From the NCBI GenBank assembly GCA_024228115.1, contig JAAETT010000054.1, forward strand, positions 12,793 to 76,792: DNA of 64,000 nt, written 5' to 3'. The notes beneath the pieces are model-generated. The model made no database searches. It saw only the letters and a program-made list of their open reading frames with translations, and was not told the DNA's origin. The stretch is from a bacterium (GTDB lineage Bacteria > Myxococcota_A > UBA9160 > UBA6930). This document shows, piece by piece, positions 9,570 to 60,302 of the stretch (its first letter is position 1; the number at the start of each line of letters is the position of its first letter). The translations under genes and the position numbers were made by a program.

Positions 9570-9585
9570 TGCAAAGGGAGTGCCA
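9570..9585 (-). promoter_or_regulatory. Sigma-54 promoter upstream of flgB (TGGCAC-TCCCT-TTGCA)
   Basis: The minus strand reads TGGCACTCCCTTTGCA, matching every specified position of the -24/-12 core (TGGCAC-N5-TTGC). It lies about 45 nt upstream of the preferred flgB ATG. Confidence 0.7.
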
Positions 9586-13728: not shown

Positions 13729-14264
13729 TCGTCTCTCATCGCCCGCTGACGAAGCTCCGAGCGTTGGATCTCCAGCACGTGGGCAATCACCGCATCCCGA
13801 TCGCACTCGGCGATGACCCGAAACCCTGTTGCGATGGTTACGGACTTTCCCTCCGCTTCACATTCCGCGACCCGCCCAATGCTCAGAACCGTATGATTGG
13901 GTGTGCCGGGGATCGTAATCTCCATCAGTACGTCGCTGTCGAGGGCGACTTCCTCGCAGACAGGAAATCGGATCCCGGAACCGGAGAGGGTCACCTCGAG
14001 CGCCCCCTCGGAGGTCATCCAGGATTCTTCTTCGGTCTCGAAGCGGGCGAGAATCCGATCGAGCTTGGTCTCCACCCGGTCGAGCCACTCTGCGAGGCCC
14101 GGATCGACTCTCGAGACATCAGGCGCTTCGCGGGTTTGAATCTCAGATGTCAGACCCGCAATCTCGGAAGGAATCACCCGCCGGCAGCGCACGGGTAGAA
14201 AGGTGGAGACACGGTAGTAGGAACGCTGGTCCGCACCGCTGTACGACGTGTTGGGGACGTTCAA
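13725..14264 (-). CDS. PilZ-domain protein (c-di-GMP receptor)
   Basis: RxxxR motif (QRSYYRV) and a DxSxxG-like motif (TLSGSGIRF). TTG start with AGGAGG 8 nt upstream. First gene behind a consensus sigma-54 promoter. Confidence 0.8.
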   Translation of the reverse strand: MNVPNTSYSGADQRSYYRVSTFLPVRCRRVIPSEIAGLTSEIQTREAPDVSRVDPGLAEWLDRVETKLDRILARFETEEESWMTSEGALEVTLSGSGIRFPVCEEVALDSDVLMEITIPGTPNHTVLSIGRVAECEAEGKSVTIATGFRVIAECDRDAVIAHVLEIQRSELRQRAMRDE

Positions 14265-14297: not shown

Positions 14298-14313
14298 AGC
14301 AAATGACGTGCCA
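14298..14313 (-). promoter_or_regulatory. Sigma-54 promoter upstream of pilZ (TGGCACG-TCAT-TTGCT)
   Basis: The minus strand reads TGGCACGTCATTTGCT, matching every specified position of the extended consensus TGGCACG-N4-TTGCW. About 35 nt upstream of the pilZ TTG start. Confidence 0.75.
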
Positions 14314-14474: not shown

Positions 14475-15317
14475 ATGGCTCGAAGTTCCGAATCCATACG
14501 AAGAGAGCTCGAACGCCGCTACGACGCGGGGAAGATCGAACTTCCCCTGCTTCCCGAAATCGCCCAGCAAGTCATGGAAACGGCTTCGAATCCGTTGACG
14601 GCTTCCGCCGACCTGGCAACGCTCGTACACAGCGATCAGGGCCTTGCGGCAGAAATCCTGAAAGACGCGAATTCCGCGATGCAAGCGGGCCGAGTCGCCA
14701 TCGTGTCCCTTCAGCAGGCCATCTCGCGGCTCGGCATTCAGCGCGTCGTGGAGCTCGCTGTCGCGGCGAGCGTGAGAGATGGTGTGTTCTCGGTGCCGGG
14801 CTTTCAGCAGGAACTCCGGGGGCTCTGGCGTCGCTCTCTCGGCACTGGCCTGTTCGCGAAGGAAGTGGCCCGGGCGTTACGCGAAGATGTCGAGGCCGCC
14901 TTCCTTTCTGGCCTTCTGCGAAACGTCGGCACCGCGCTCCTGATCCGTGCCCTGGCGCGTATTTGTCGTGTGAACGAACCGAACATGCGTCCCGAAGAAT
15001 TCCTGGAGCTGGACGCTGCTTTTCGCGTGCGCCTGGGACTCGATGCCGCCGAGAGCTGGGGCCTTCCTGAGCACGTTCGTGATGCCATCACGTTCGATGG
15101 ATCGGTACCACCGGAAACCGGTACGACTCATGCGAAGCTCGTCCTTCTGGCCGAGCGACTCTTCGACCTGATCGATGCCGACGATGAGAACGCTTCGAAG
15201 GAAGAGGCTCTTCGCGATGATCCGATCCTCGACGTCCTGGGAATCTACCCTGAAGACCTCGATGCTCTCCTCGAAGTGGGCAACACGGTGCGGGAGATGC
15301 TGGAGACCGGCGAGTGA
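14475..15317 (+). CDS. HDOD-domain signalling protein
   Basis: LPLLPEIAQQVMETASNPLTASADLATLVHSDQGLAAEILKDANSA... is the HDOD N-terminal pattern. Confidence 0.85.
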   Translation: MARSSESIRRELERRYDAGKIELPLLPEIAQQVMETASNPLTASADLATLVHSDQGLAAEILKDANSAMQAGRVAIVSLQQAISRLGIQRVVELAVAASVRDGVFSVPGFQQELRGLWRRSLGTGLFAKEVARALREDVEAAFLSGLLRNVGTALLIRALARICRVNEPNMRPEEFLELDAAFRVRLGLDAAESWGLPEHVRDAITFDGSVPPETGTTHAKLVLLAERLFDLIDADDENASKEEALRDDPILDVLGIYPEDLDALLEVGNTVREMLETGE

Positions 15318-16772: not shown

Positions 16773-17915
16773 CTAGGCGTCGGGCTCTTCGTTGGATTCT
16801 TCCCTGTCGGACGTCTTTCCGTCGATGGCGAGGGCGATTCGATCCCGCCCGAGCTCCTTGGCCTGGTACAAGGCGCGGTCGGCCCGATCGAACCAGCTTC
16901 GGGCATCTTCGCCAGATTCCAGCCGTGCAGCGCCGATCGAGACGGAGACCCGGATCGGCTCGTCCTCGCCTTCGCACACTACATCGAGCTCACGAATGGC
17001 GAATAGCAGCCGATCACCGATCTTGTTCGCTGTCTCGAGACTATCCTCGAGGATCACGGCGGAGAATTCATCCCCGCCGTAGCGCGCCAGGAAATCGCCT
17101 TTGCGCCTGAACGTATGGGCCAACGTCGACGCGACCTGACGCAACACCTCGTCGCCAGCGGCATGGCCGTACCGATCGTTGACCCACTTGAAGTGGTCCA
17201 CGTCGATCATGAACAAGATGGCTGGCTGCCCGAGCACCAGTCCGAGACTGACCACCCGGGAGACCTGTTGGTCGAGGCCTGCGCGATTGCAGATCTCGGT
17301 CAAGGCATCGACCTGGAGCTGATCCTTCACCTCGACGAGTTCGCTCGCCATATCGTCGAGTTGGCCTGAGAGCTCGTTGATCTGGCCCTGCTCGCGGAGC
17401 TTGCGGCCCTCGATGCGACTCTGGATCAACGAGATCGATGAGAGGGCCTCGCGCTTCAGTGCCTCGGTATCGTTCGAGTCCACCGCGCGGCGCAGATCGA
17501 GCAGCTTGGAGGCGACTTCACCATCCGTCTGGCGATCTTCGGTGATGGCCCGCCCGAGACTCTCGACGAACTGCCAGATGACCTGGCGAAGGTCTTCCAT
17601 GTTGCGCGTGACGTATTCATGCTCGGCCCTGCGATGCTCGCGGACGAAGCGTCCAAGCCCGGTCCAATCTTTCTTGTTGGCGGGCGGAGCCGATGGATCA
17701 TCCAGCCCTGGCCGGGGCGAGGCGAGTGCGGCGTGGCGAGCCCAGCCCTCGAAATCCTCCTGGATTTCCTCTTCTTCACGCCCTTCCAGCGCAATGGCCA
17801 TCTCACCCCAGACCCGAAGGGCTGCGACGAGCGCGTCTAGCGCGGGATCTTCATCCGTTCCTGCTGCAGACGAGTTCTTCTTCAACGGCGGTCCCACAAG
17901 CGCCTCCTTCGGCAC
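16773..17915 (-). CDS. Diguanylate cyclase (GGDEF) with an N-terminal coiled-coil sensor region
   Basis: GGDEF motif (ARYGGDEFSAVILE) with an upstream RxxD I-site (RKGD). Confidence 0.9.
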   Translation of the reverse strand: MPKEALVGPPLKKNSSAAGTDEDPALDALVAALRVWGEMAIALEGREEEEIQEDFEGWARHAALASPRPGLDDPSAPPANKKDWTGLGRFVREHRRAEHEYVTRNMEDLRQVIWQFVESLGRAITEDRQTDGEVASKLLDLRRAVDSNDTEALKREALSSISLIQSRIEGRKLREQGQINELSGQLDDMASELVEVKDQLQVDALTEICNRAGLDQQVSRVVSLGLVLGQPAILFMIDVDHFKWVNDRYGHAAGDEVLRQVASTLAHTFRRKGDFLARYGGDEFSAVILEDSLETANKIGDRLLFAIRELDVVCEGEDEPIRVSVSIGAARLESGEDARSWFDRADRALYQAKELGRDRIALAIDGKTSDREESNEEPDA

Positions 17916-22923: not shown

Positions 22924-22939
22924 TGCAAGGCGGGTGCCA
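22924..22939 (-). promoter_or_regulatory. Sigma-54 promoter upstream of flagellin (TGGCAC-CCGCC-TTGCA)
   Basis: The minus strand reads TGGCACCCGCCTTGCA. About 175 nt upstream of the flagellin ATG, which implies a long leader. Confidence 0.65.
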
Positions 22940-23072
22940 TGAGCCCTGGAGGAAACGCCCGAGGCCGTCTCCTGGCTTCGCCGTCCTCCGATCAACACGC
23001 GGCCTTCCCTCGAACCATGCACGCGTGCTGCGTGTATGTGATGGCCGGCACTCCATTCTTTCGAAGCAGCGA

Positions 23073-23088
23073 CGTTTCAACTCGAAAG
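23073..23088. promoter_or_regulatory. Candidate enhancer site B (CGTTTCA-ACT-CGAAAG)
   Basis: Motif family member lying between two divergent sigma-54 promoters. Its centre is about 142 nt from the flagellin -24 GG and about 57 nt from the GNAT -24 GG. The flanks (GCGACGTTTCAA..GAAAGC) are nearly identical to site A. Confidence 0.5.
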
Positions 23089-23136
23089 CCTTGAACACAA
23101 TTCGTCGTTCCCTGGTGACGAGAATGCGCGCGAGCA

Positions 23137-23152
23137 CGGCACCGTTCTTGCG
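23137..23152 (+). promoter_or_regulatory. Sigma-54 promoter upstream of the GNAT gene (CGGCAC-CGTTC-TTGCG)
   Basis: The plus strand reads CGGCACCGTTCTTGCG. About 35 nt upstream of ATG 23186. Confidence 0.6.
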
Positions 23153-32363: not shown

Positions 32364-32379
32364 AGCAAGACTCATGCCA
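32364..32379 (-). promoter_or_regulatory. Sigma-54 promoter upstream of flgF (TGGCAT-GAGTC-TTGCT)
   Basis: The minus strand reads TGGCATGAGTCTTGCT, one mismatch to the consensus core. About 39 nt upstream of the flgF start. Confidence 0.7.
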
Positions 32380-32838: not shown

Positions 32839-33693
32839 TCAGCCGAAGAGACCTTCTGCGTTCTTCGCCTCCTCCTCGACGAGTTCGAGGATGGGATCCA
32901 TGTCGGCGGCACCGAGATCCAGATAGCTCCATGCGGGGAGTTCCATGACGTCGATCGCTTCGATCGCGCCGCGCCTCCCATAGCCGAGGCGGCTGCAGCA
33001 GCGGGTCACGACGGCGGTCAGCGCGATCAATCGACCGGCCTCCGGGGGCCCGTCCGGATAGTCCGCGGGATCGTGGTGATGAAAGCGAATCGCATCAACC
33101 AACTTCTCCGGCAGTTTCCATTTTTCGCCTACCAGAGCACCCAGTTCCGCGTGGTCGAAGCCGAATTCTTCCTGTTCCGCATCTCGGAAGGCAATGCCCT
33201 CGTTGTAGGTGCGCATGATGATCGTGCTGTATTGCTCGCGGGCCGTATTCGCCAGGGCGATCTTCCCGAGATCGTGAAGCAAGCCCGCGGTGAAGGCCGA
33301 TTCGCGCTCGACATCGATGAGTCCGTAGCTCGAGAGGCGCGCCGCCACCGAGCCGGCAAGCGTCGAGTGCTCCCAAAGGAGCTTCTCGGAGAGCCCGAAG
33401 TTCTGGAACACATCGCGCAACGATGCAGCCATCACCAGATTCTCCACGGTTCGAAAACCGAGCAGGGCGATCGCATGCCGCAGGGTCTCGATCCCCCGCG
33501 AAAATGCGTAGAGCGACGAGTTCGCGACCTTCAAGATGCGCGCAGCAAGAGCGGGATCCGTTTCGATCACCGTGCGAAGATCGTCCGCGCTCGTGTTGGG
33601 GTCGGCGGCTGCCGTCATCACCTTGCTGGCGACGGCGGGGATTCCGGGAAGATCTCCGACGACAGCGAGATAGGGCTTGAGTCGCTCGTTCAT
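32839..33693 (-). CDS. HDOD-domain protein (occupies the slot after flhG)
   Basis: ...LPGIPAVASKVMTAAADPNTSADDLRTVIETDPALAARILKVANSSLYAFSRGIETLRHAIALLGF... plus HD-like ...AGLLHDLGK. Confidence 0.85.
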   Translation of the reverse strand: MNERLKPYLAVVGDLPGIPAVASKVMTAAADPNTSADDLRTVIETDPALAARILKVANSSLYAFSRGIETLRHAIALLGFRTVENLVMAASLRDVFQNFGLSEKLLWEHSTLAGSVAARLSSYGLIDVERESAFTAGLLHDLGKIALANTAREQYSTIIMRTYNEGIAFRDAEQEEFGFDHAELGALVGEKWKLPEKLVDAIRFHHHDPADYPDGPPEAGRLIALTAVVTRCCSRLGYGRRGAIEAIDVMELPAWSYLDLGAADMDPILELVEEEAKNAEGLFG

Positions 33694-42790: not shown

Positions 42791-44221
42791 TCAACCGTTC
42801 AACGGCAAGCGGCTGGCGCGCACGTGGGCGTCGCTCTCGATTCCGAATTCTTTCAGGCGTCGCCACAGAGTCGTCGTTGAGATCTGCAGCAGCTCAGCGG
42901 CTCGCTTCCGATTCCATCCGACCTTGTCGAGTGTCTCCAGGATGTGGCGGCGCTCGATACCTGGAAGGCTCTGGATTCCCGTATCCAGGACGAGCCGCTT
43001 CGGCTCGCGAACATGAAGCGGAAGGTCATCCACCTCGATCCGACCCGTGCGACACAATGCAACGGCGCGCTCGATCGCGTTCTCGAGCTCTCGCACGTTG
43101 CCCGGCCATCGATATCCCGCGAGCCGATCCATCGCGGCGTCGTCGATATCCTCGACCGGGAAGCTGGTCTTGTCCGCCATCTGGCCGAGGAAGTGTCGTG
43201 CCAGAAGCGGAATATCTTCCAATCGCTCGCGAAGCGGCGGAACATGCACCGGAATCACGGCAAGGCGGTAGTAGAGGTCTTCTCGGAAGCGACCTTCGGC
43301 TACCTCGGTTTCGAGATCCTTGTTGGTGGCCGTGACGAGCCGGACATCGACATAACGCGTGACCTCCTCGCCCACGGGCCGGATTTCACCGGTCTGCAGG
43401 AAGCGCAGTAGTTTCGCCTGCATGGAGAGCGGCATCTCTGCTACTTCGTCCAGGAAGACGGTGCCTCGATCGGCGTGCTCGAAAAGGCCCTTGCTGTTCG
43501 AAGAAGCTCCGGTGAACGCTCCGCGGCGGTGTCCGAAGAGCTCACTCTCCAGAAGCGTTTCGGGAAATGCTGCGGAGTTCACGGCCGAAAAGACCCTCTC
43601 GCCACGGCGACTCGCGTCGTGAATCGCTCGCCCGATCAGTTCCTTTCCGGTTCCGGTTTCGCCGGTGATCAAAGCCGTGCTGTCGGTCTCGGCGACCTTG
43701 CGGACCAGTTCGAGAAGCTCTCGCATGGCCAGGGATTCGCCGATGATTCCGGGGAAGCGATGTTTCCAACCGGTCGAGGTTGGCAACGTTCGGGTCGGCT
43801 CCGGCTCCTCGATGATCTTGGGCAGCCGGGCGACGACCTCTTCCAGCGCTTCCGCGTCCCAGGGCTTGCCCAGGAAATAGGAAACGCCGGCCTGATTGAT
43901 GGCAAGCTGGGCAATATGCGGATCATCCGAGCCAGTGATCAGCACGCGACTGATCTCCGGCCAGGTATCCCGCACGGTCGTGAGCAACTCCACGCCGGAG
44001 CCGGTCGTGAGCCGCTGGTCGGCGATCACGCCCTGAATGCGCTCGGCGTGAAGCAAGGCCATGGCCTGGGCCATGTCGCCGGCTTCGATCGGTCGAACGT
44101 CGAGTCGTTTCAATGCCCGCGCGAGGGCGCGGCGCACCAAAGGCTCGTCGTCGACGACCAATACAGTCGGCAGCGATGCGTTCACTTGCCGCCTGTCCTT
44201 TTCTTCCCACCGTCCGTTCAT
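42791..44221 (-). CDS. Sigma-54-dependent response regulator (NtrC/FleQ-FleR class) with a canonical receiver
   Basis: The start is trimmed to ATG 44221. The receiver has VLVVDDE, VIADQRL, LITG and LGKPW. AAA+ ITGETGTGKELIGRAIH, ESELFGHRRGAFTGA. HTH RKRAAELLQISTTTLWRRLKE. Confidence 0.92.
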   Translation of the reverse strand: MNGRWEEKDRRQVNASLPTVLVVDDEPLVRRALARALKRLDVRPIEAGDMAQAMALLHAERIQGVIADQRLTTGSGVELLTTVRDTWPEISRVLITGSDDPHIAQLAINQAGVSYFLGKPWDAEALEEVVARLPKIIEEPEPTRTLPTSTGWKHRFPGIIGESLAMRELLELVRKVAETDSTALITGETGTGKELIGRAIHDASRRGERVFSAVNSAAFPETLLESELFGHRRGAFTGASSNSKGLFEHADRGTVFLDEVAEMPLSMQAKLLRFLQTGEIRPVGEEVTRYVDVRLVTATNKDLETEVAEGRFREDLYYRLAVIPVHVPPLRERLEDIPLLARHFLGQMADKTSFPVEDIDDAAMDRLAGYRWPGNVRELENAIERAVALCRTGRIEVDDLPLHVREPKRLVLDTGIQSLPGIERRHILETLDKVGWNRKRAAELLQISTTTLWRRLKEFGIESDAHVRASRLPLNG

Positions 44222-44404
44222 TTTGGAGCCACCCCGCTCGCGTTTCCGCGAATAACTGCCGGCGGCAGAGACAGTGCCGGCTGCGATCATGGGCTCATGG
44301 ATCGGCGGGGGAACGGGCCACCTTGACGATATTCTTGGACTTTTCCGTCCTGACTGGATCTCGGGAGAGGCCTTTTGTTGGCCTTTCGCCCCTTTTCAGC
44401 CAAT

Positions 44405-44429
44405 CGTTTCAGGTGTTTCAAGGAGAAAG
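44405..44429. promoter_or_regulatory. Motif-like site C (CGTTTCA-GGT-GTTTCA-AGG-AGAAAG) upstream of the canonical activator gene
   Basis: Two direct GTTTCA half-sites. They abut a weak sigma-54-like element (minus strand TGGCTGAAAAGGGGCG, 44387-44402) and overlap a weak sigma-70-like TTGAAA-N17-TGAAAA. Confidence 0.25.
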
Positions 44430-44451
44430 GTCGGGCGGAAAGAATTTCCCC

Positions 44452-45198
44452 CTAACCGCCCGTCGGCTCCTGATTGTGGAGGAAGGTGAACTCCACGCGG
44501 CGGTTCCTTGCTCGGCCTTCGGCATCTTCGTTCGAGGCGATGGGCCTGGTATCGGCGAAGCCGGTGACCTGCAGACGAGCCGGATCCACCCGAGCCACGT
44601 CCACGAGAAATTCGAGTGTCGCTACCGCGCGAGACGTCGAGATCTGCCAGTTGTTGGTGGTCGAGGAAGAGGGCGAGGAATCCGTGTGGCCCTCGATCGC
44701 GACGGTATCGGGCGTGCCGTTGATGAGGCTGGCCACTTCCTGGAGAAAGACCAGGGATTCGACCCGGAGCTCGGTGGAGCCGGAAGTGAACATCAACTCT
44801 CCGGGAACACGGATCACGACGCCCCTGGCCGTCTCGTCCACTTCGATCAGACGATCCATGCGTTTCGCCGCGATGCTGGCCTTGATGCGCTGGGCAAGCC
44901 TCTTGGTCGCGATTTGCTGGCGTGTCTTGGCGTCGATGACGCTGAGATGCGAGGACATCGGGCGATCGTTGAGGCTGATCATGTCGTCCGCCATGGCCTC
45001 GAACTTCCCTGGGACCACCAACTGGACTCCGAAAGCATCTCGCACGGAGCCGCTGACCTCAGCGAAGCGTTGAGCGTCCATGCTGGCGAACGAGAGCAAC
45101 AGGATGAAGAAGGTGAGCAGGAGGCTCATCAAGTCGCCGAAGGTCGCCATCCAAGCTGGGGCCGTCGGCTCCTCATAGGCGTCTTCGTCGTCGCTCAT
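44452..45198 (-). CDS. motB: Flagellar stator protein MotB (OmpA-like peptidoglycan-binding domain)
   Basis: N-terminus ...PAWMATFGDLMSLLLTFFILL (plug/TM with the conserved Asp) and C-terminus ...IEGHTDS...NWQISTSRAVATLEFL...GFADTRP...NRRVEF. Confidence 0.9.
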   Translation of the reverse strand: MSDDEDAYEEPTAPAWMATFGDLMSLLLTFFILLLSFASMDAQRFAEVSGSVRDAFGVQLVVPGKFEAMADDMISLNDRPMSSHLSVIDAKTRQQIATKRLAQRIKASIAAKRMDRLIEVDETARGVVIRVPGELMFTSGSTELRVESLVFLQEVASLINGTPDTVAIEGHTDSSPSSSTTNNWQISTSRAVATLEFLVDVARVDPARLQVTGFADTRPIASNEDAEGRARNRRVEFTFLHNQEPTGG

Positions 45199-45962
45199 TT
45201 CTCAGCGGCCTTCGCTTCCCGATCCGCTGGCGACAGGTAGGCATCGAGCTTCGACTGGATGACCATCGAGTTGTCGCCCTTCAAGATGGATTCGACACCG
45301 ATGATGGCGAGCGTCTTGTGAGCGACTTCGCTCTTCGTACGTGTCTCGAGCTTCGAAGCAATGGGCGCGAACAGGACGAATGCGAGAATGGCGCCATACA
45401 ATGTCGTGAGCAGCGCGACGGCCATGGCGGGGCCGATCGCGGCGGGATCTTCCATCGCCTGGAGCATCTGTACGAGGCCGATCAGCGTTCCGATCATCCC
45501 CATGGCCGGTGCGGTCGAGGCCATGAATTTGAAGACGGCCTGAGAGCGACCATGGCGGCTCTTCAACGTCTTGAGCTCGCCCTCGAGGATTCCGTTGATG
45601 ATCTCCGGTGCGAGACCATCCACGCCCAGCTGGACCCCGCGAGCCAGGAACGGATCCGGGATATCCTCGCCCTCCAGCGAAACGAGCCCTTCCTTGCGAG
45701 CCTTCGCTGCCAGGTCCACCACCTTGTCGATCAGCTCGGTCGCGGAAGGCGCTTTTTCGAAGAACGCCTGGACATAGACCTTCGCCGCACCAGCGACCAG
45801 GCCCATCGATTCATTGATCAGTGTGGCGGCAATCGTACCGCCAACCACGATCAAGAGGCCTGGCGCGTTCACGAACGCCATGATCGAACCGCCTAGCAGC
45901 ATCGCCCCTATGATCAGGCCGATGCCAAGGACGATTCCGATCAGCGTTGCAAGATCCATCAC
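45195..45962 (-). CDS. motA: Flagellar stator protein MotA/PomA
   Basis: Four-TM layout. ...MASTAPAMGMIGTLIGLVQML...GPAMAVALLTTLYGAILAFVLFAPIASKL is the MotA/TolQ/ExbB channel motif. Confidence 0.92.
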   Translation of the reverse strand: MMDLATLIGIVLGIGLIIGAMLLGGSIMAFVNAPGLLIVVGGTIAATLINESMGLVAGAAKVYVQAFFEKAPSATELIDKVVDLAAKARKEGLVSLEGEDIPDPFLARGVQLGVDGLAPEIINGILEGELKTLKSRHGRSQAVFKFMASTAPAMGMIGTLIGLVQMLQAMEDPAAIGPAMAVALLTTLYGAILAFVLFAPIASKLETRTKSEVAHKTLAIIGVESILKGDNSMVIQSKLDAYLSPADREAKAAEK

Positions 45963-46094
45963 AGCCCACCGGAGCGAAATCCACTTCGATTACCCGTGCG
46001 CGGAGCCCGCTCCTGCTACCGCACCTCTACGCAGATATCGGATCTTCCGCGTCGCAGATCGATCCGGGGAAGCATGGAATCCTGCCCGGGGCGT

Positions 46095-46688
46095 CTACCC
46101 CAGAGCATCGGGGTGATCGATCGTGGCGATCTTGCCCCGAGTCTCGCCTAGCACGGGCGCGATCTCGTATTCCAGGTAGTCCGCGACACGAATCCAGTCC
46201 TGGGCTTGCTGGGCATCCGCTACGGAATCCAACCAGGGCTGCACCCGAATCCCGATCTCCTCCACGGGTTGCGCCTTCGGCCCGAGATGCTCCGCAGCTG
46301 CTTGAAGTGTGAACAACAAGACCGACATGGCGTCGATGGCCTCGACGAAATGATCGCTCGCCACCTCCGGCCGATCCGCTCGCATCAGCTGCGCCGTCTC
46401 GAGGAGCGCATCGCGGACGCGATCCGCGTACTCCCCGGCGCTCGCCAGGCTCTTCCATGCCACGTCGCGGACCGATGCCGTCTCGACTTCGACCCGCTCG
46501 CATTCGCCCAGAGCGACCTCGGAGAGATCTCCGAGTTCTAATGCGGGTACTTCCTCCCCGTCGAGAGACAAGCGGAGCACGACCCGAGCCTCGGCCTCGG
46601 ACGGAGCCAGGAACGGGAGAAGCAGGGCTTCCGCGTTCGAAAACTTGCCTTCGACTTCCGCCTCCTGGCCGTCCTGGATCAAGCGCAT
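46095..46688 (-). CDS. Hypothetical 197-aa protein, first gene of the motAB transcription unit
   Basis: The start is trimmed to ATG 46688, with AAGGAGG 4 nt upstream. No recognisable motif. The N-terminal half looks beta-rich and the C-terminal half is helical. It lies directly downstream of a sigma-54 promoter. Confidence 0.5.
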   Translation of the reverse strand: MRLIQDGQEAEVEGKFSNAEALLLPFLAPSEAEARVVLRLSLDGEEVPALELGDLSEVALGECERVEVETASVRDVAWKSLASAGEYADRVRDALLETAQLMRADRPEVASDHFVEAIDAMSVLLFTLQAAAEHLGPKAQPVEEIGIRVQPWLDSVADAQQAQDWIRVADYLEYEIAPVLGETRGKIATIDHPDALG

Positions 46689-46734
46689 GGAACCTCCTTG
46701 CCGCAGTTTTCTTGCTGGCGTAGCCGGACGAAGA

Positions 46735-46750
46735 TGCAAGCGGCGCGCCA
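46735..46750 (-). promoter_or_regulatory. Sigma-54 promoter for hypothetical-motA-motB (TGGCGC-GCCGC-TTGCA)
   Basis: The minus strand reads TGGCGCGCCGCTTGCA, one mismatch to the core. About 47 nt upstream of ATG 46688. Confidence 0.65.
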
Positions 46751-46766
46751 GGGCACGGGTCTTGCT
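46751..46766 (+). promoter_or_regulatory. Sigma-54 promoter for the plus-strand glycosylation operon (GGGCAC-GGGTC-TTGCT)
   Basis: The plus strand reads GGGCACGGGTCTTGCT. It directly abuts the divergent minus-strand promoter. About 105 nt upstream of ATG 46872. Confidence 0.6.
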
Positions 46767-46842
46767 CTTGTGTCTCTTCGCAGCCTTCCCTTGGCCTTTG
46801 CGCCAAGGAGAGGGTCGCTCGGGTTCCCGATCGAAACCGCGA

Positions 46843-46858
46843 CGTTTCAATTTGAAAG
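46843..46858. promoter_or_regulatory. Candidate enhancer site A (CGTTTCA-ATT-TGAAAG)
   Basis: The best palindrome of the family. Its centre is about 101 nt upstream of the motAB-side -24 GG, and it lies 78-93 nt downstream of the plus-strand -12 element. Confidence 0.5.
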
Positions 46859-46871
46859 CAAGGCGGAAAGA

Positions 46872-47576
46872 ATGCACACCGGTGCAGAACGCATGAACAG
46901 CCAGACGGAACTCCGAATGCGTTGGAACGATCTCCACGCGAAGCAACGATATTGCCCGCGCTACCCGGATGAAGCCGTCGTGCGTTGGGCACTCACTTCG
47001 TTTCCCGGGCGGGAAGATGGAACGGCACGTGCCCTCGACCTGGGCTGCGGGGCTGGCCGGCACGCGATCTTCCTCGCACAGGAGGGTTTCGAGACGTCCG
47101 TCGTAGATCTCTCCCAGAAAGGACTCGACGCGACGACACAACGCGCCGCTTCGGAGGGCCTCCAGATCGATGCCCAGCTAGCAGCCGTCGATACGTTCGA
47201 CTTTCCTCCTGGCTTCTTCGACGCCGTGCTCTCGTACAGCGTGTACTGCTATGCGCCTCTCGAGCGGATCGGCGCATCCATCGCGCGCGTCGCCGATTCA
47301 TTGAAGCCCGGCGGGCGCTTCCTCTGCTTTACTCGAACGACCGCGGATTGGCGTAGAGGCTTTGGAACGCCGACAGGCCCGGAGCGCTGCCGAATCAATG
47401 CTCTAGATGGCACACCCGCGGATGCCGAGGCGGGCCTCGAACTCACCTTTCTCGAAGAGCCGACATTGAGGCGGCTTTTCGAGCCCTTTCATCGTATCGA
47501 GGTGAACCGCCGCAGCGTCAGCCGCCAGGACGGTCACTTCATCGACGATGATTGGTTGGTGACGGCGGTGCGATGA
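46872..47576 (+). CDS. Class I SAM-dependent methyltransferase
   Basis: The start is trimmed to ATG 46872. Motif I ALDLGCGAGRHAIFLAQEG, post-I VVDLS, motif II ...FDAVLSYSV. Confidence 0.8.
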   Translation: MHTGAERMNSQTELRMRWNDLHAKQRYCPRYPDEAVVRWALTSFPGREDGTARALDLGCGAGRHAIFLAQEGFETSVVDLSQKGLDATTQRAASEGLQIDAQLAAVDTFDFPPGFFDAVLSYSVYCYAPLERIGASIARVADSLKPGGRFLCFTRTTADWRRGFGTPTGPERCRINALDGTPADAEAGLELTFLEEPTLRRLFEPFHRIEVNRRSVSRQDGHFIDDDWLVTAVR

Positions 47577-47577
47577 C

Positions 47578-48564
47578 GTGATGCTCCGTGAGGCGCGAAA
47601 GATCCTCCTCCGGGTGGAGGCAAATGCCGAGATCGGCCGGGGCCACGCCGTGAGGTCGGCTGCCCTGGTCGATGCACTGGCTTCGGACGAGCCGCTGATC
47701 GTCGTGGGCGAAGGGGCGGAGCTGCGATCACTCTTCCCCAACGCAGAAATCGAGCCGTCCGAACGATTTGCTGAGCTCGCCGCCGAGGCCAGCGTCACCA
47801 TCATCGATCATCCGAACCCCCGTGTCGCGGACCTCGAAATCCCGGGGCTGAAGGTGGTGATCGACGATGGGGGCGACATTGCTTCCGCGGATATCGTGGT
47901 CGCCGGTGGTGGCCCCCCTTCTCGCTACGCCTACCCGAAGCTCGGTGAAGGCGTCCTTCGGTTGTGTGGGCCCCAGTACGCTCTCTTGCGTCCGGCCTTC
48001 TCGAAGGAACGACGGATCAGGGATGAACGATCCAAGCCCGGATTGCTTCTAGCGGCTGGCTCGGGAGGCAACGCTGCGCGTTGGTTGATAGGCGTACTCG
48101 AGGTTGCGTCTGGGATTTCCGGCCAACCATCCATCGACGTCGTCGTCGGAGCCTCGTTCGCAGAACACGACCGGCTCCGGATTCTCTGCGAAGAAGGAGG
48201 CCACTGGCTCGGCTGCAACCTCTCGGGCTCTGCCCTCGCCAACCGGCTAGCCACGGCTTCCGTCGCCGTCGTCACCGGAGGCATGATCGTGCCGGAGGTT
48301 CTGGCACTCGGTACCCCATGCGTAGCGTTTCCGAACGAAAGGGACCTCGTCGAGGAAATCGCCTGGTTGGATGAGCTGGACGCTCTTTGCGGGCTCGATC
48401 CACGCGGCGCCCCGGAAGAAACCTGGCTTCGCGTCGGAGAGCTCCTCTCGGATGTTCGGCAGGCCGAGGCGTTGGCGGCTTCGGGCATGCGCCTGTTCGA
48501 TGGACGCGGCGCCGATCGCGTTGCGGCAGCCATCGAAGAACGGCTCTCCGGAGCGAACCGCTGA
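47578..48564 (+). CDS. pseG: PseG-like UDP-sugar hydrolase (GT28-like fold), pseudaminic acid pathway
   Basis: N-terminus ILLRVEANAEIGRGHAVRSAALVDAL matches the PseG RxDxxxxIGxGHxxR pattern. The C-terminal ...VVTGGMIVPEVLALGTPCVAF is GT-B-like. Confidence 0.72.
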   Translation: MMLREARKILLRVEANAEIGRGHAVRSAALVDALASDEPLIVVGEGAELRSLFPNAEIEPSERFAELAAEASVTIIDHPNPRVADLEIPGLKVVIDDGGDIASADIVVAGGGPPSRYAYPKLGEGVLRLCGPQYALLRPAFSKERRIRDERSKPGLLLAAGSGGNAARWLIGVLEVASGISGQPSIDVVVGASFAEHDRLRILCEEGGHWLGCNLSGSALANRLATASVAVVTGGMIVPEVLALGTPCVAFPNERDLVEEIAWLDELDALCGLDPRGAPEETWLRVGELLSDVRQAEALAASGMRLFDGRGADRVAAAIEERLSGANR

Positions 48565-49289
48565 TGCGTTTGGCCATCATGCAGCCAACCTACCTGCCCT
48601 GGTCTGGATACCTCGATCTCGCCGATCAGGTAGATGTCTTCGTCTTCCTCGATGACGCCAGCTTTGCGCATCGCAGCTGGCAGCAGCGCAATCGAATCGT
48701 CGCGGCCGGAGCCCTGCAATGGCTCACGGTTCCGGTTCGGGTAAAAGGCCTGCGCGGCCAGACGATCCGGGATGTCGAGATCGAGCGCCCCGACTTCTGG
48801 CGCAAACATCTGCGCGCGTTGGCACATGCCTACGCGAAGGCGCCGTTCTTCGACGAGTACTGCCCCAGGCTCGAAGCCATCTTGTCTCGGCCCGAAGGTT
48901 GGACTGGGCTCGCGGAACTGAACCTGGCCCTCATAGAATGGCTCTTTGGCGAATTCGCCATCGAGGTCCCAACCCACCTCTCTTCCCGACTCAAAGCCGG
49001 GAGTCGCCGCGGCGAGCGGTTGGCCGCGCTCTGCCAGGAACTCGGAGCCGACCAATACGTTTCTGCCCCGGGTACCGAGGCATACCTCCCCGAAGACCAG
49101 GAGCCGTTCCGCGGCCGCGGAATCGACGTTTCGATCCAATCCTTCGAGCTGCCCGTGTACAGGCAGAGCTGCGACGGCTTTGTTGCCCAGGCCAGTGCCA
49201 TCGATCTGCTGTTCAATGAAGGACCGGGGGCGCTCGACATCCTGCGGCGTGGGCGTCGCCCTGCTCGACCACTCGGTGCTGCACCGTGA
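48564..49289 (+). CDS. WbqC-family protein
   Basis: The start is trimmed to ATG 48564 (TGATG junction with pseG). MRLAIMQPTYLPWSGYLDLADQVDVFVFLDDASFAHRSWQQRNRI is the WbqC signature. Confidence 0.8.
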   Translation: MRLAIMQPTYLPWSGYLDLADQVDVFVFLDDASFAHRSWQQRNRIVAAGALQWLTVPVRVKGLRGQTIRDVEIERPDFWRKHLRALAHAYAKAPFFDEYCPRLEAILSRPEGWTGLAELNLALIEWLFGEFAIEVPTHLSSRLKAGSRRGERLAALCQELGADQYVSAPGTEAYLPEDQEPFRGRGIDVSIQSFELPVYRQSCDGFVAQASAIDLLFNEGPGALDILRRGRRPARPLGAAP

Positions 49290-50341
49290 ACGGCTTTCAT
49301 CTCGAAGGGCGTGCGATCGGAGGCAACGCTCCCCCGTATGTGGTTGCGGAACTTTCCGCCAACCACCTTGGCCGGCTCGACCGCGCCCTCGCCATCGTCG
49401 ATGCGGCCCACGGTGTCGGAGCGGACGCGATCAAGCTTCAGACCTACACCGCGGACAGCATGACGCTGGATCTTGCAGGGCCGGGCTTCTCGATCAAAGA
49501 GGGACCTTGGAGTGGACGGAACCTCTTCGAGCTCTACGCTGAAGCGGAGACTCCCGCCGCTTGGCATCTCGAACTCTTTGAACGGGCACGCAGGCTGGGC
49601 ATGGCGGTCTTCAGCTCGCCCTTCGACCCTGCCGCTGTCGATTTCCTGGAGAGCCTGGACGCACCTGCCTACAAGATTGCGTCCTTCGAGCTCGGCGACC
49701 ATGAGCTGATTGCTCGCTCGGCCGACACGGGAAAGCCACTCATCCTTTCCACCGGAATGGCCCAGCAGGACGATATCCAGCGCGCTCTCGATGTCGCGCG
49801 AAATGCGGGTGCCTCGGACCTCGCCTTGCTGCATTGCGTGAGCGGCTACCCGACTCCACCCGACGAAATGAATCTTCGCCGCGTCGCTACGCTCGCCGCC
49901 GAGTTCGACGTCGTCACGGGCCTCTCGGATCATAGCCTGACGGCCGCTGCGCCGGTCGCCGCAGTCGCCCTTGGTGCAAGCGTGATCGAAAAGCATCTCA
50001 CGCTCTGTCGGGCCGATGGTGGGCCCGACGCGGGTTTCAGCCTCGAGCCTGACGAGTTTGCAACGATGGTTCGCGACGTGAGAGAAGCGTGGAGCGGCCT
50101 GGGCACCGGCCACTGTGCGAGCGCACCTAGCGAAGACAGCAGCCGGATCTATCGGCGCTCCCTGTACATCGTGCGCGATGTGGCCGCGGGCGACCGGATC
50201 ACCCGCGAAACCATTCGGGCCATCCGGCCTGCGCTTGGCCTGGAGCCGCGTCATCTCGAGAACGTATTGGGACGCCCCGCATTGCGTGCCTTGAAGCGCG
50301 GGGAACCCCTCGCCTGGGAGCAGCTCGGGGAGCCATCATGA
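49286..50341 (+). CDS. pseI: Pseudaminic/N-acetylneuraminic acid synthase (NeuB/PseI family)
   Basis: ...PYVVAELSANHLGRLDRALAIVDAAHGVGADAIKLQTY..., ...KIASFELGDHELI..., and a C-terminal SAF domain. GTGA coupling to the WbqC gene. Confidence 0.88.
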   Translation: MNGFHLEGRAIGGNAPPYVVAELSANHLGRLDRALAIVDAAHGVGADAIKLQTYTADSMTLDLAGPGFSIKEGPWSGRNLFELYAEAETPAAWHLELFERARRLGMAVFSSPFDPAAVDFLESLDAPAYKIASFELGDHELIARSADTGKPLILSTGMAQQDDIQRALDVARNAGASDLALLHCVSGYPTPPDEMNLRRVATLAAEFDVVTGLSDHSLTAAAPVAAVALGASVIEKHLTLCRADGGPDAGFSLEPDEFATMVRDVREAWSGLGTGHCASAPSEDSSRIYRRSLYIVRDVAAGDRITRETIRAIRPALGLEPRHLENVLGRPALRALKRGEPLAWEQLGEPS

Positions 50342-51078
50342 GCGGGCCCGTCGTCGCCATCCTGCAGGCACGGGCAACCTCCACGCGCCTACCGGGAAAG
50401 GTCTGCTTGCCGCTGGCAGGTGCGCCTCTCCTCTCTCGCGTGATCGAACGCGTGGCACGAACCCCGGGCGTCGACGAGATCTGCGTAGCCATTCCGGATG
50501 GAGAGGTCCAGAATCCTGTTGCCGATGTGGTCGCCCTGCATCCGGGGGTTCGTCTCGTCCGGGGCCCGGAGGACGACGTACTCGCGCGTACGGCGATCGC
50601 GATCCGGGAGACCGGGGCGTCGGTCGTGCTCCGCGTGACGTCCGACTGCCCGCTCTACGATCCGGCTGTTGGAGCCTCGGTGCTGGAGATGCGTTCGCAC
50701 CTCCAGGTCGTTCTGGCTTCGACCGCCCTCGAATCGGGATTTCCGATCGGGTTGGATGCCGAAGCCATCGCCGGCGATGCGCTTCTACATGCCGATCGCG
50801 AAGCCCGGGACCCCTATGAACGCGAACATGTCACGCCGTGGTTGTGGCGGGGCTCGGCGCACGGCGCCGTAGCCTTCCTCGATCGGAGCCCCGACCGACG
50901 TGCCTGGAGATTGGCTGTCGATACTGCCGACGACTACCGGCTCGTTTCCGCAGTCTTCGACGAACTCCACGAACGCGATCCGGCCTTCGGCTTCGATGCC
51001 ATCGAGCGATGTCTTTCGGCCCACCCAGAATGGGTCGGCTGGAACGCGCACGTACCCCAGACACCCTATCAGTGGTGA
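50338..51078 (+). CDS. Cytidylyltransferase of the SpsF/PseF type (CMP-nonulosonate synthetase candidate)
   Basis: VVAILQARATSTRLPGKVCLPLAGAPLL is the SpsF/acylneuraminate cytidylyltransferase N-terminal motif. ATGA coupling to pseI. Confidence 0.72.
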   Translation: MSGPVVAILQARATSTRLPGKVCLPLAGAPLLSRVIERVARTPGVDEICVAIPDGEVQNPVADVVALHPGVRLVRGPEDDVLARTAIAIRETGASVVLRVTSDCPLYDPAVGASVLEMRSHLQVVLASTALESGFPIGLDAEAIAGDALLHADREARDPYEREHVTPWLWRGSAHGAVAFLDRSPDRRAWRLAVDTADDYRLVSAVFDELHERDPAFGFDAIERCLSAHPEWVGWNAHVPQTPYQW

Positions 51079-51088
51079 GGAACATTCC

Positions 51089-52564
51089 ATGCGTCTTCTC
51101 TTCGTGAATCCGAACCTGCGGCCCGGCCACTCGACACGATACCTCCCGGTGGGCCTGGCCTACGTGATGACGACGGTTCGTGAAGCGGGTTACGACGTGG
51201 AGGTGCTGGACATCGGCCTGCACGACCAGGCTGATGCGGAGGTGGAAAGATTCCTCGCCGAGGACCGCTGGGACGCGATTCTCACCGGCTCGATCGTTAC
51301 GCACTATAAGTGGATGAAGGCGTTCACGCGGATGGCGAGGAAGAATGCGCCTCATGCGAAGCAGATCGTAGGCAACTCCGTCGCAGGCTCCGTGCCGGAA
51401 CTCTTCTTGCGCAACTCCGAAGCGGATGTCGTGGTCGTGGGTGAGGGCGAGCTGACGACCGTCGCCGTGCTTGACGCGCTCCACAATGGAAGCTCTCTAG
51501 AGGAAGTCGAGGGCATCGTGCTCCGCGGTGCAGGTGGCAAACCCGTCCACACGCCGCGGCGACGAGCGGCGCGTGTCGACCAGTTTCCGATGCCCGATTG
51601 GGACCTCTTCGAGATCGGTACCTACTTTGGCCAGACCGATGCCCCCTCGGCCTGGGGAATCGGCGAGGGCCCGGAGACCTGGCGAACGATGCCCGTGGCT
51701 ACGGCTCGCGGCTGTGTCTTCAAATGCACGTTCTGTCACATCGTCTACAAGCACGATCCCTATCGGCACCGCTGCGCGGAAGGAATCCTCCAGGAGGTCC
51801 GCCGGAACATCGAGCGCTACGGCGCGAACTACATCAACTTCTGGGACGATCTCACATTCTACAAGCTCTCCCAGGCCGAGAAGATGATCGACGCCATTCT
51901 CGACTCGGGCCTTCGTTTTGCCTGGAGTGCTTCCGTGCGTACGGATCTGTTCGGGAATCCCGAGATCCCTTTCGAGCGCAGGCTGGCCGTCGCCGAAAAA
52001 TTCCGTGAGGCCGGATGCCGAACGCTCGGCTACTCGCTCGAATCTGGGAATGCCGGGATCCTCGAGATGATGAACAAGCGTGTCCGCGTCGAGTATTTCG
52101 AGGAGCAGGTCCGCATCCTGCGGCAGGCCGGGATCACGTCGAATACGAGCGTCGTGCTCGGATACCCGATCGAAACCCTCGACACGATTCGCGAAACCTT
52201 CGACCTGTGCGAACGAAACGGGGTCTACCCCAGCGTCGGTTTTCTGCTGCCGCTACCGGACACGGAGATGTACACCTACGCCCTGCGCCAGGGCCTCATC
52301 CGAGATGAGGATGCCTACCTGGATTCCATCACCGAGCGACAGGACATCTGCCTGAACATGACCGAACTCGAAGACCAGCAGATCCTCGATGAGATCCAGG
52401 CCGGCTGTTCGAGACTGAACGATCGACTGGACCTGGGCCTCTCAGACGATCAATTCATTCGCACCGGCGGCTACAAGAAGCACACGCCGAAATCTGCGGA
52501 AGCCCGCCGCCGAAACCAGAACGACACGAGCTTCAGCTATTCCAAGCAAGCCTTCGAGCAATGA
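51089..52564 (+). CDS. B12-binding-domain radical SAM enzyme
   Basis: The start is trimmed to ATG 51089, with GAGGAA upstream. N-terminal cobalamin-binding-like region (LLFVNPNL...LPVGLAYVMTTVREAGYDVEVLDIG) and a CxxxCxxC cluster (ARGCVFKCTFCH). Confidence 0.85.
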   Translation: MRLLFVNPNLRPGHSTRYLPVGLAYVMTTVREAGYDVEVLDIGLHDQADAEVERFLAEDRWDAILTGSIVTHYKWMKAFTRMARKNAPHAKQIVGNSVAGSVPELFLRNSEADVVVVGEGELTTVAVLDALHNGSSLEEVEGIVLRGAGGKPVHTPRRRAARVDQFPMPDWDLFEIGTYFGQTDAPSAWGIGEGPETWRTMPVATARGCVFKCTFCHIVYKHDPYRHRCAEGILQEVRRNIERYGANYINFWDDLTFYKLSQAEKMIDAILDSGLRFAWSASVRTDLFGNPEIPFERRLAVAEKFREAGCRTLGYSLESGNAGILEMMNKRVRVEYFEEQVRILRQAGITSNTSVVLGYPIETLDTIRETFDLCERNGVYPSVGFLLPLPDTEMYTYALRQGLIRDEDAYLDSITERQDICLNMTELEDQQILDEIQAGCSRLNDRLDLGLSDDQFIRTGGYKKHTPKSAEARRRNQNDTSFSYSKQAFEQ

Positions 52565-56853: not shown

Positions 56854-57609
56854 ATGGAGAAATCTGCCGCTTGGTTCCATTCACCCTCGGGCTTTCGCTT
56901 CACTTCGCTTTGCATTGATCCCCCGATCAACTTCGAAGCTTCGACCGCCGAACCAATCTTCGTGGACACCGTGTTGCCGACACTGTCGACCGGGAGTCGA
57001 CTGCTCCTGATCGGGGATTCTGACGGGGTTCCCCGTGCGACGATCGTCGTCCGGGTGAGCGACGGTTTGATCTGGATCAGCGGTGTCGATGAGCCGGGTC
57101 GACCCGGCGAACAGTTGGATATGCTGTACGTGGTACCCGGAGATGCTCAGTATCAGGCGCCCGCACGCGTAGAACTCGTACCACCGGAGACACTTGCGTT
57201 GCGCCGGATCGGCGAGTGGCGACGTAGCCAGCGCCGGACCGAGGTCCGCCTCACGACACACGGTGTTCAGCTCGAGGTAGAACGCCCTCCGGAGGGCAGC
57301 GAATCCGCCAGCGTCGAGAAGCTGAAGATGGTCGACGTCAGCGCAGGCGGCGCCGCAGCCCGGGGTGTCTCATCCCTCTCCTCGGGAGATGACGTGCATT
57401 GCGGCTTCCAGCTACCAGGCCGAGGGGTCTTCCGGATCGGCGCGAAGGTCGTACGCGTTCAGCCAAAAGGAAGAGGGCGCGTTTTGGGTTTTGAGTTCGT
57501 CGGTGCCACCCCCGAGGAACAGGCAGCGCTCAGGCGGTGGATCTACCGGGAGGAATCCCGGCGCCATCGCCAATCGAAACTTGGAAGTTCGGAGGATCCC
57601 AGCGAGTGA
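56854..57609 (+). CDS. YcgR-like PilZ protein (PilZN-like N-terminal domain plus PilZ); start uncertain
   Basis: RxxxR (RRSQRRTEVR) and DxSxxG (MVDVSAGGAA), then ...GAKVVRVQPKGRGRVLGFEFV. No good RBS was seen for ATG 56845 or 56854. Confidence 0.68.
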   Translation: MEKSAAWFHSPSGFRFTSLCIDPPINFEASTAEPIFVDTVLPTLSTGSRLLLIGDSDGVPRATIVVRVSDGLIWISGVDEPGRPGEQLDMLYVVPGDAQYQAPARVELVPPETLALRRIGEWRRSQRRTEVRLTTHGVQLEVERPPEGSESASVEKLKMVDVSAGGAAARGVSSLSSGDDVHCGFQLPGRGVFRIGAKVVRVQPKGRGRVLGFEFVGATPEEQAALRRWIYREESRRHRQSKLGSSEDPSE

Positions 57610-58604
57610 AAGACAGGACGATCGGAAGCGTGATCGCGCAGGATTTCGTGAGTATCGCCCCAGACGATTCCCTCGTCAGTGTTCTGGATCGGATGCGCGA
57701 TGGGCGGCTGTCCTGTGTTCCAGTCGTCGAGGGCGGGCTCCCCGTTGGCGTGATCAGTGAACGTGACATCCTCTGCCTTCTCGCGAAGAAACTGAACGGG
57801 GAGTCCTTTCCTGCCACGGCGCGAGGGGTGATGTCCGGCCCACCGATCACGATCCATGCCCATGCCTCGGTCGATGCCGCGATTCGCCTCCAGCACCGGC
57901 GAAGAATTCGGCGCCTGTTGGTCGTCGATGACGATGGGCGGTTGGTCGGAATCCTGACCCAATCGGATCTGATAGACGCGCAGACCCAGGCGCTTCGAGC
58001 CGACCGAGATCAATTGGAGGTCTATGTCTGCGAGCGCACAGAGGAGCTGAGGCTCGCGAATGAACGGCTGGAGCACATGTCCATGATCGATCCGATGCTC
58101 GGCACAGGCAACCGTCGGGCCATGGATCAGCACCTCACCCGTCTCAAGGATCTTTCGGAACATTTCGGGCGAGGGTTTGCAGTCCTGATGCTCGACATCG
58201 ACGACTTCAAGTCGTTCAACGACCACTACGGGCACTCCGAAGCAGACGCTGCATTGGGCGACATGGTTTCAGCCGTGCAAAGTGCGATTCGGTCCTGCGA
58301 TGTCCTCTTCCGCTTCGGTGGTGAAGAGTTCGTCGTCACACTTCCCGAAACCGATGAGGACAGCGCTGTCGAAGCCGCCGAACGCATTCGCGGCGCAGTA
58401 GAGGCCCTGCAGATTCCGCATGAGCTCTCGAGCCACGCTGTCATGACCGTGAGTCTTGGCGTGCATGTCATCGGCCCGGAAACGGGGAACGTCGACATCT
58501 CCTCCGTGATCCGCGCGGCGGATGTTTCCCTCTACGATGCCAAAGAGAACGGGCGCAACAGAACGGGAAAAGCCGTCAGCTCCGAGAACGCGTTCTCCGG
58601 CTGA
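57606..58604 (+). CDS. CBS-pair / GGDEF diguanylate cyclase
   Basis: The start is set at GTG 57606 (GTGA overlap with the PilZ stop, GGAGGA 9 nt upstream). Two CBS motifs (...VPVVEGGLPVGVISERDIL..., ...LLVVDDDGRLVGILTQSDLI). GGEEF with an RxxD I-site (RSCD). Confidence 0.88.
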   Translation: MKDRTIGSVIAQDFVSIAPDDSLVSVLDRMRDGRLSCVPVVEGGLPVGVISERDILCLLAKKLNGESFPATARGVMSGPPITIHAHASVDAAIRLQHRRRIRRLLVVDDDGRLVGILTQSDLIDAQTQALRADRDQLEVYVCERTEELRLANERLEHMSMIDPMLGTGNRRAMDQHLTRLKDLSEHFGRGFAVLMLDIDDFKSFNDHYGHSEADAALGDMVSAVQSAIRSCDVLFRFGGEEFVVTLPETDEDSAVEAAERIRGAVEALQIPHELSSHAVMTVSLGVHVIGPETGNVDISSVIRAADVSLYDAKENGRNRTGKAVSSENAFSG

Positions 58605-59646: not shown

Positions 59647-59771
59647 GCTGTAGGCAGCATGCCATTCGTCGCCGCGCCCGGCCAGAGGCCCGAAAACGCT
59701 TGGGGGAGTTTTCCAGTGGAACTCAAGACCCCACCCGAGCCCTCCGAAGACTCCCCCAGGAGGTGAGGGAG

Positions 59772-60302
59772 ATGGGGGTCGAAGCCCAACGCTATCCGAG
59801 GTTCAAGAAGCGGGTCCCCTGCCGGGTCACCGTATCTGGAGAATCGACGGCAGCCGTCGTGCTGAATGTCTCCCAGGCCGGTCTGTTCGTTCAAACGGGC
59901 GCCACGGCCCAGCCCGGCGACCAGGTCACGATTCGCCTGAGCCCGGCCCATACGGCTGAGCCGATCGCGATCGATGCCAAGGTCGTTTGGCGCCGAAAGG
60001 TTGCCTCTCATCTGCGAACGATCGTGAAGGGTGGAATGGGGCTGGCGATCCGCAGCGCACCGTCGTCGTACTTCGAATTCTTGACAGGTGCTCTACCGAA
60101 CACGGCCCCACGCGCGGCGGCCACTGCAAACGAAGCGGCCTCTGATTCGCCCGAAAAAACCTTTCTCATGCGCGTGCGTCAGGACGGCGGCCCGCGCACC
60201 CGCAAGCTGTACGTGCAGGCCGCAGACCAGGCCGATGCGTCCCGCCGCGTCCTCGCGCGCTTTGGATCGGGCTGGACGGTCATCCTGGCGGAACAAGCCT
60301 GA
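59772..60302 (+). CDS. PilZ-domain protein with a C-terminal extension
   Basis: The start is trimmed to ATG 59772, after GGAGGTGAGGGAG. RFKKR (RxxxR) and NVSQAGLFV (DxSxxG type). Confidence 0.7.
   Translation: MGVEAQRYPRFKKRVPCRVTVSGESTAAVVLNVSQAGLFVQTGATAQPGDQVTIRLSPAHTAEPIAIDAKVVWRRKVASHLRTIVKGGMGLAIRSAPSSYFEFLTGALPNTAPRAAATANEAASDSPEKTFLMRVRQDGGPRTRKLYVQAADQADASRRVLARFGSGWTVILAEQA

Follow-up and report, generated by a model that had tools for sequence, protein, structure and literature searches.

Abutting divergent sigma-54 promoter motifs between the stator and flagellin-sugar operons of a Myxococcota-like bacterium

A sigma-54 promoter gives no transcript before an ATPase bound at an enhancer has remodelled the closed complex, and how such a promoter works depends centrally on the way promoter, enhancer, and activator are arranged. 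The subject here is a 64-kb stretch of bacterial DNA (64,000 nucleotides of contig JAAETT010000054.1, called the window throughout), in which two divergent sigma-54 promoter motifs touch each other inside the 183-bp spacer separating DUF8042-motA-motB from a six-gene nonulosonic-acid (pse-like) operon. The promoter facing DUF8042 is named F and the promoter facing the sugar genes is named R; two dyads forming a candidate enhancer lie to one side of the pair.

46735-46750, minus: promoter F, TGGCGCGCCGCTTGCA, the reverse complement of TGCAAGCGGCGCGCCA; GG at 46749-46748, GC at 46737-46736
46751-46766, plus: promoter R, GGGCACGGGTCTTGCT; GG at 46752-46753, GC at 46764-46765
46823-46837: enhancer dyad 2, GTTCCCGATCGAAAC; centre at -106 relative to the predicted F start, +53 relative to that of R
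46844-46858: enhancer dyad 1, GTTTCAATTTGAAAG; centre at -127 relative to the predicted F start, +74 relative to that of R

Several related arrangements are on record. In Caulobacter crescentus, the divergent flagellar units flaN-flbG reportedly carry ftr elements, and a flagellin promoter is said to have a 3' enhancer; the two flaN-flbG promoters are reportedly separated rather than abutting. Going by titles only, the likeness to the present locus lies in divergent flagellar units under sigma-54, in control elements (ftr2/ftr3, 3' enhancer) placed beyond a start, and in an FlbD-type activator, which an FlbD-like protein of the window parallels. The E. coli hyc and hyp operons are said to have divergent NtrA-dependent promoters and to involve FhlA. 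Judged again by title, this is a divergent sigma-54 operon pair with one activator and an unrelated function; the FhlA site CATTTCGTACGAAATG loosely resembles the TTTC...GAAA dyads, with a half-site spacing of N4 versus N5 here. At Pseudomonas dmpR/dmp, sigma-54 RNA polymerase reportedly controls a divergent, non-overlapping sigma-70 promoter; the likeness lies in sigma-54 holoenzyme occupancy affecting a divergent neighbour, but the dmp partner is a sigma-70 promoter and there is no overlap.

In E. coli and Salmonella, the intergenic region of zraP-zraSR carries two divergent sigma-54 promoters, one on each strand and both controlled by ZraR (PMC4987338). Here too, two opposed sigma-54 promoters share one intergenic region. 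In E. coli K-12, 139 bp separate the two motif matches at zraP/zraSR, and the interval holds a long inverted repeat; this repeat, taken as the ZraR site, places the enhancer upstream of both promoters. In the window, by contrast, the -24 elements touch and the enhancer is not central: both dyads are upstream of the F start and downstream of the R start. In Vibrio cholerae, the flagellar sigma-54 activator FlrC has sites that are true enhancers despite their position downstream of the start (PMC6504787), and the dyads at +53 and +74 of the pse promoter fit this leader placement. The FlrC sites, however, serve single promoters, with no abutting divergent partner to share them.

Divergent sigma-54 pairs under one activator are already known, as are leader enhancers. 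No account of abutting or bidirectional sigma-54 promoters, nor of -24 elements in direct contact with a one-sided enhancer, turned up in the literature searched, which is absence of evidence only. The layout of F and R recurs in uncultured relatives and is a real, moderately unusual version of a known bacterial gene switch.

The promoter pair and its tandem enhancer

The 32 bp at 46735-46766 are best explained as a bidirectional sigma-54 core promoter: a holoenzyme at F would fire leftward into DUF8042-motA-motB, a holoenzyme at R would fire rightward into the six-gene nonulosonic-acid (flagellin glycosylation) operon, and the tandem-dyad enhancer at 46823-46858 would serve both. On evidence that is comparative throughout, F and R are probably two real sigma-54 promoters that share this enhancer and couple the stator and flagellin-sugar operons.

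F ends at 46750 and R begins directly at 46751, and the zero spacing claimed in a preliminary description of the locus is therefore correct. Each motif departs from TGGCAC-N5-TTGCW at one position and keeps both GG and GC, exactly 10 bp apart. The same description called the 32-mer a quasi-palindrome. Self-complementarity does extend over 20 of the 32 positions; it is confined to sigma-54 consensus positions, with the two spacers asymmetric, and the supposed palindrome is thus merely two copies of one motif.

Orientation and distance fit both operons. The distance to the ATG of the first gene is 47 nt for F (DUF8042) and 106 nt for R (methyltransferase); the predicted starts at ~46724 (F) and ~46777 (R) would give leaders of 36 nt to DUF8042-motA-motB and 95 nt to the methyltransferase/pse operon. 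DUF8042 and the methyltransferase alike have plausible ribosome-binding sites. The operon directions proposed earlier, minus for the stator genes and plus from the methyltransferase to the radical SAM gene, agree with this layout, and the gene then called hypothetical is DUF8042. No sigma-70-like promoter for either operon was detected within 46000-47000, and no integration host factor (IHF)-like site lies between enhancer and promoters at up to two mismatches.

The motif is enriched in the window. Eight matches with at most one mismatch to the consensus are present, versus 1.23 +/- 1.09 expected from 100 dinucleotide-preserving shuffles, none of which reaches eight; six of the eight are intergenic and face flagellar operons. 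Beyond F and R, the relevant features are as follows:

9570-9585: perfect motif before flgB
14298-14313: perfect motif before the operon of a PilZ-like protein, a 715-aa protein, and the FlbD-like activator
22924-22939, minus: perfect motif before flagellin, TGGCACCCGCCTTGCA
32364-32379: one-mismatch motif before flgF
9618-32, 9656-70, 14352-66, 23074-88, 32503-17: dyads of the GTTTC-N5-GAAAC type at these promoters

At these four promoters the dyads are 65-170 bp upstream. The flagellin/GNAT spacer (22924-23152) resembles a conventional divergent sigma-54 pair: a weaker motif, CGGCACCGTTCTTGCG (23137-52, plus), faces the GNAT gene, and the two promoters flank the dyad array (23074-88 with an adjacent site), unlike at the abutting pair (46735-66).

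Both dyads between F/R and the methyltransferase match GTTTC-N5-GAAAC. Their centres are 21 bp apart, which places them on the same face of the helix, and dyad 1 ends 13 nt before the methyltransferase ATG. The preliminary description had proposed one shared enhancer, site A, at 46843-46858. This site is present as dyad 1, begins one base later (46844), and does lie upstream of F and inside the R leader; it is part of a tandem dyad rather than a single site. In the close clade the dyads keep a constant distance from F (94 and 115 bp from the -12 C), and in every locus having them they are upstream of F and on the side that R transcribes, with no locus showing the opposite arrangement. A second enhancer able to serve R from upstream was sought on the DUF8042 side, and no dyad was found there in any close locus. 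Use of the dyads by R is an assumption of the model.

The flagellin promoter carries a near-identical array, CTTTCGAGTTGAAAC-GTCGCT-GCTTCGA, with the common form CTTTC-N5-GAAAC-GTCGC-GnTTCGA; comparable dyads stand ahead of the flgF and flgB promoters. This recurrence suggests that one activator probably runs the flagellar regulon. Two proteins encoded in the window are candidates for binding the dyads, an FlbD-like protein and an NtrC-type response regulator. Stator, flagellin-sugar, and filament genes would then answer to one signal.

Conservation and loss in relatives

Relatives were collected from the contigs of the few DUF8042 homologues and from scans of genome and metagenome collections, giving ~20 loci. 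One is on a 5.8-Mb chromosome labelled Myxococcota bacterium; others are labelled Deltaproteobacteria. The F motif is kept in 16 distinct related loci, and its variation is mostly within the spacer, as it should be for a sigma-54 promoter. The F/R pair is present in 13 distinct loci. The motifs abut in nine (the window, L001, L002, L004, L011, L024, L023, L008, and L019), are separated by 9 bp in L016, and by 52-66 bp (52, 59, 66) in L012, L013, and L018. In a distance tree of DUF8042, abutting pairs occur in both major clades.

R faces a nonulosonic-acid gene (methyltransferase, B12-binding radical SAM, or PseI) in 12 of the 13 loci, the exception being L008. It is nearly invariant, including its spacer (GGGTC or GGCTC), even where it stands 9-66 bp from F, which indicates that conservation of R is its own and not a by-product of F. 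Mean pairwise identity over seven close loci ranks the parts of the region:

32-bp core: 0.89
enhancer block: 0.70
rest of the spacer: 0.56
DUF8042 leader: 0.52
third codon positions of DUF8042: 0.47

Both motifs are conserved far above the neutral background (0.89 for the core versus 0.47-0.56). The comparison supports the view that F and R both behave as real sigma-54 promoters.

Loci with altered gene content are informative. The six-gene operon is absent in L007 and L008, where pseC-maf lies upstream and co-directional with DUF8042. In L007, R has decayed (CCGCAC, with the spacer shortened to 4) and F and the enhancer are intact; in L006, where the contig ends 191 nt upstream, R and ~34 bp are missing and F and the enhancer persist. 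L023, the sister of L008, retains the divergent methyltransferase, so the rearrangement in L008 looks recent. In L015 (2258-2280) and L025 (94-129), DUF8042-motA-motB begins ~30 nt after pseC-maf, and both promoters and the enhancer are absent; stator and glycosylation genes appear to be coupled by co-transcription instead of by divergent promoters. Taken together, these patterns favour the view that driving the sugar operon is what R is for and that F depends on the enhancer.

Simultaneous or exclusive engagement

With the C of GC set at -12, each 16-mer spans -26 to -11, and the partner's GGCAC falls at -28 to -32. The DNA modelled in the closed complex by cryo-electron microscopy covers about -33 to -5/-9 (PMC5505868). 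In the E. coli system, with PspF at the nifH promoter, the L1 loop of the activator cross-links to the DNA at -30 to -27, directly preceding the consensus GG, and deleting this DNA cuts activator-dependent open-complex formation 35-fold (PMC3467059). At the present locus, the corresponding contact stretch of each promoter (-27 to -30) includes the partner's GG. Activator and sigma-54 would thus want the same base pairs, which points to engagement one at a time. Given the published contact data, interference between F and R is likely, and mutually exclusive occupancy is plausible. The two promoters would most likely be engaged singly, with their operons competing for initiation events.

The alternative that fares best grants that both promoters are real and makes them independent: two holoenzymes would sit back to back simultaneously, and the zero spacing would be compaction without regulatory consequence. 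This is possible, if doubtful. Each holoenzyme extends downstream from its -24 element, which forms its upstream edge; the TGGCAC-type hexamers are centred 6 bp apart and, by geometry, would be on roughly opposite helix faces; and relatives carry the same pair at gaps of 9, 52, 59, and 66 bp. Ordered closed-complex DNA nevertheless extends to about -33, the activator contact at -30 to -27 coincides here with the partner's GG, and exact zero spacing in nine lineages of both major clades suggests that the spacing does not drift freely.

Exclusive engagement can also be pushed to its strongest form, in which the 32-bp element is an obligate one-at-a-time switch: a single holoenzyme loads in either orientation, one enhancer-bound activator fires whichever is loaded, and selection has kept this logic in two deep clades. 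As a whole this is unlikely. If true, stator production and flagellin glycosylation would divide one flagellar signal between them, by cell or by event, and such regulation would have no described parallel for sigma-54.

Several points weigh against the coupled, mutually exclusive promoter pair. The relatives with 9-66 bp between F and R indicate that abutment is dispensable for coupling, so exclusivity may lack a selected role. The contact at -29 was measured with PspF at the nifH promoter, and this locus may behave differently. An enhancer downstream of the R start is atypical. In L008, the R motif is perfect even though a co-directional maf takes the upstream place and R has no open reading frame after it, which means that R can persist without an operon to drive. 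Finally, no gene of RpoN size or domain content lies within the 64-kb window.

Some of these points would suit a different explanation, in which only F works, R is a non-productive sigma-54 site (a decoy or brake tuning F) or a relic, and the pse operon is transcribed from an unrecognised promoter. The perfect R motif of L008 has no gene to drive, the sole detectable enhancer is downstream of the R start, and sigma-54 sites adjoining or overlapping another promoter may repress or activate it (PMC3844500). The explanation is improbable all the same: R faces nonulosonic-acid genes in all loci of the pair but one, even at 9-66 bp from F, where steric braking is impossible; it has been lost in L007, which has no divergent operon, and in L006; the spacer has no sigma-70-like promoter; and leader enhancers have precedent.

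That the 32-mer is a dimeric-regulator site or a chance motif pair, and not sigma-54 promoters at all, is very hard to credit, because the self-complementarity of 20/32 positions is restricted to the sigma-54 consensus, the same motif stands singly at the flgB, flagellin, and flgF promoters, the halves are apart in L012, L013, L016, and L018, F stands alone in L006 and L007, and the chance expectation is ~1e-5 for a second match, with up to one mismatch allowed, at a fixed position.

Genomic context, leader RNA, and biological meaning

The window as a whole is a flagellar cluster with two sigma-54 activator genes. The genes around the promoter pair, and the two candidate dyad binders, are listed below.

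46095-46688, minus: DUF8042 gene (197 aa), first gene of the F operon
46693-46699, minus: ribosome-binding site AAGGAGG of DUF8042, kept in relatives
45195-45962, minus: motA (MotA_ExbB, 9e-28)
44452-45198, minus: motB (MotB_plug, OmpA)
42791-44290, minus: NtrC-type response-regulator sigma-54 activator (Sigma54_activat), candidate dyad binder
9708-11000, minus: FlbD-like sigma-54 activator (Sigma54_activat; best NCBIfam match FlbD, 349 bits, below cut-off), candidate dyad binder
46872-52564, plus: R operon, six genes, overlapping or tightly spaced
46872-47576, plus: methyltransferase, first gene of the R operon
14475-15317, 16773-17915, 32839-33693, 57537-58604, 59700-60302: cyclic-di-GMP-related genes

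Leftward beyond motB come the NtrC-type activator, fliL, fliM, fliN, fliOP, fliQ, fliR, flhB, flhA, flhF, and a MinD-like gene. The spacer between motB and the activator gene (44291-44451) has a dyad-like site at 44415-44429 (GTTTCAAGGAGAAAG) and a short GGCC hairpin; no acceptable sigma-54 motif for the activator gene was found in it. The cyclic-di-GMP-related genes, which lie amid the flagellar cluster, encode two HDOD proteins, two GGDEF proteins (one with CBS domains), and a PilZ protein.

The R operon reads, in order, methyltransferase, PseG-like, WbqC, NeuB/PseI, CMP-sugar cytidylyltransferase, and B12-binding radical SAM, and it converges on pseB-pseC-maf of the opposite strand. A flagellin glycosylation locus of the pseudaminic/legionaminic type beside the flagellar genes is indicated by NeuB (2.6e-83), CTP_transf_3, Polysacc_synt_2, DegT, and MptE-like matches; the PseG and PseD models score below their cut-offs. 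The best NCBIfam matches of the B12-binding radical SAM protein (51089-52564) are also below cut-off and include several B12-dependent radical-SAM methyltransferases. The presence of both this gene and the SAM methyltransferase in the sugar operon hints that the flagellin nonulosonic acid might be methylated or otherwise elaborated.

Among related loci, DUF8042 follows the glycosylation genes more faithfully than motAB. Its AlphaFold model is confident (pLDDT 90), with a small N-terminal alpha/beta domain and a long helical bundle, and a fold search gave no PDB match with E < 0.001. PF26154 (DUF8042) is listed for all homologues in precomputed tables; a Pfam-A scan of the window protein gave no family, and the PF26154 model was probably missing from that Pfam-A copy. 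The C-terminal motif of the protein (DWIRVADYLEYEI) recurs in a small open reading frame of Aeromonas dhakensis (L014, ~3850-4105), placed between a maf-like and a methyltransferase-like open reading frame. In a distant clade (L012 4603-7232, L018 3605-6267), DUF8042 is followed not by motAB but by PilZ-like (~180 aa) and ~715-aa proteins, which are 30-33% identical to the products of window genes 13725-14264 and 11581-13728. These homologies suggest that an ancestral operon was split and re-headed in the clade of the window.

The predicted R leader contains a hairpin (46780-46818, plus) with the core CCTTGGC (46789-46795) and GCCAAGG (46802-46808). This is the 7-bp hairpin of the preliminary description, which had placed its start one base off, at about 46788. 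RNAfold gives -29 kcal/mol (z = -4) for the first 60 nt of the leader. In single-sequence folds, a comparable 5' hairpin appears in L001, L002, and L008, and none appears in L004, L011, or the distant loci. A conserved RNA structure in the pse leader was considered and rejected: RNAalifold on six leaders gave no shared helix at the hairpin. The hairpin is lineage-specific and not a conserved component of the system. A search for known RNA families within 46000-47400 returned nothing meaningful. In L008 (2724-2931), the orphan R motif (AGGCACGGGTCTTGCT) faces the 3' end of maf in antisense orientation, and a very stable hairpin (-38 kcal/mol, z = -6.4) comes after it.

The Myxococcota are better known for gliding than for swimming. 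The flagellar system is complete here, including L- and P-ring genes (window, L010), and the nearest complete genome of the lineage is labelled Myxococcota.

The arrangement of F and R overturns nothing known. As a conserved natural pair sharing upstream edges and one enhancer, it could be used to ask what minimum distance two closed complexes tolerate, whether the activator contact at about -29 is needed in vivo, and whether both directions are served by an enhancer that lies in a transcribed leader. For the organisms themselves, the pair would tie stator supply to flagellin glycosylation in unstudied flagellated Myxococcota-like bacteria.

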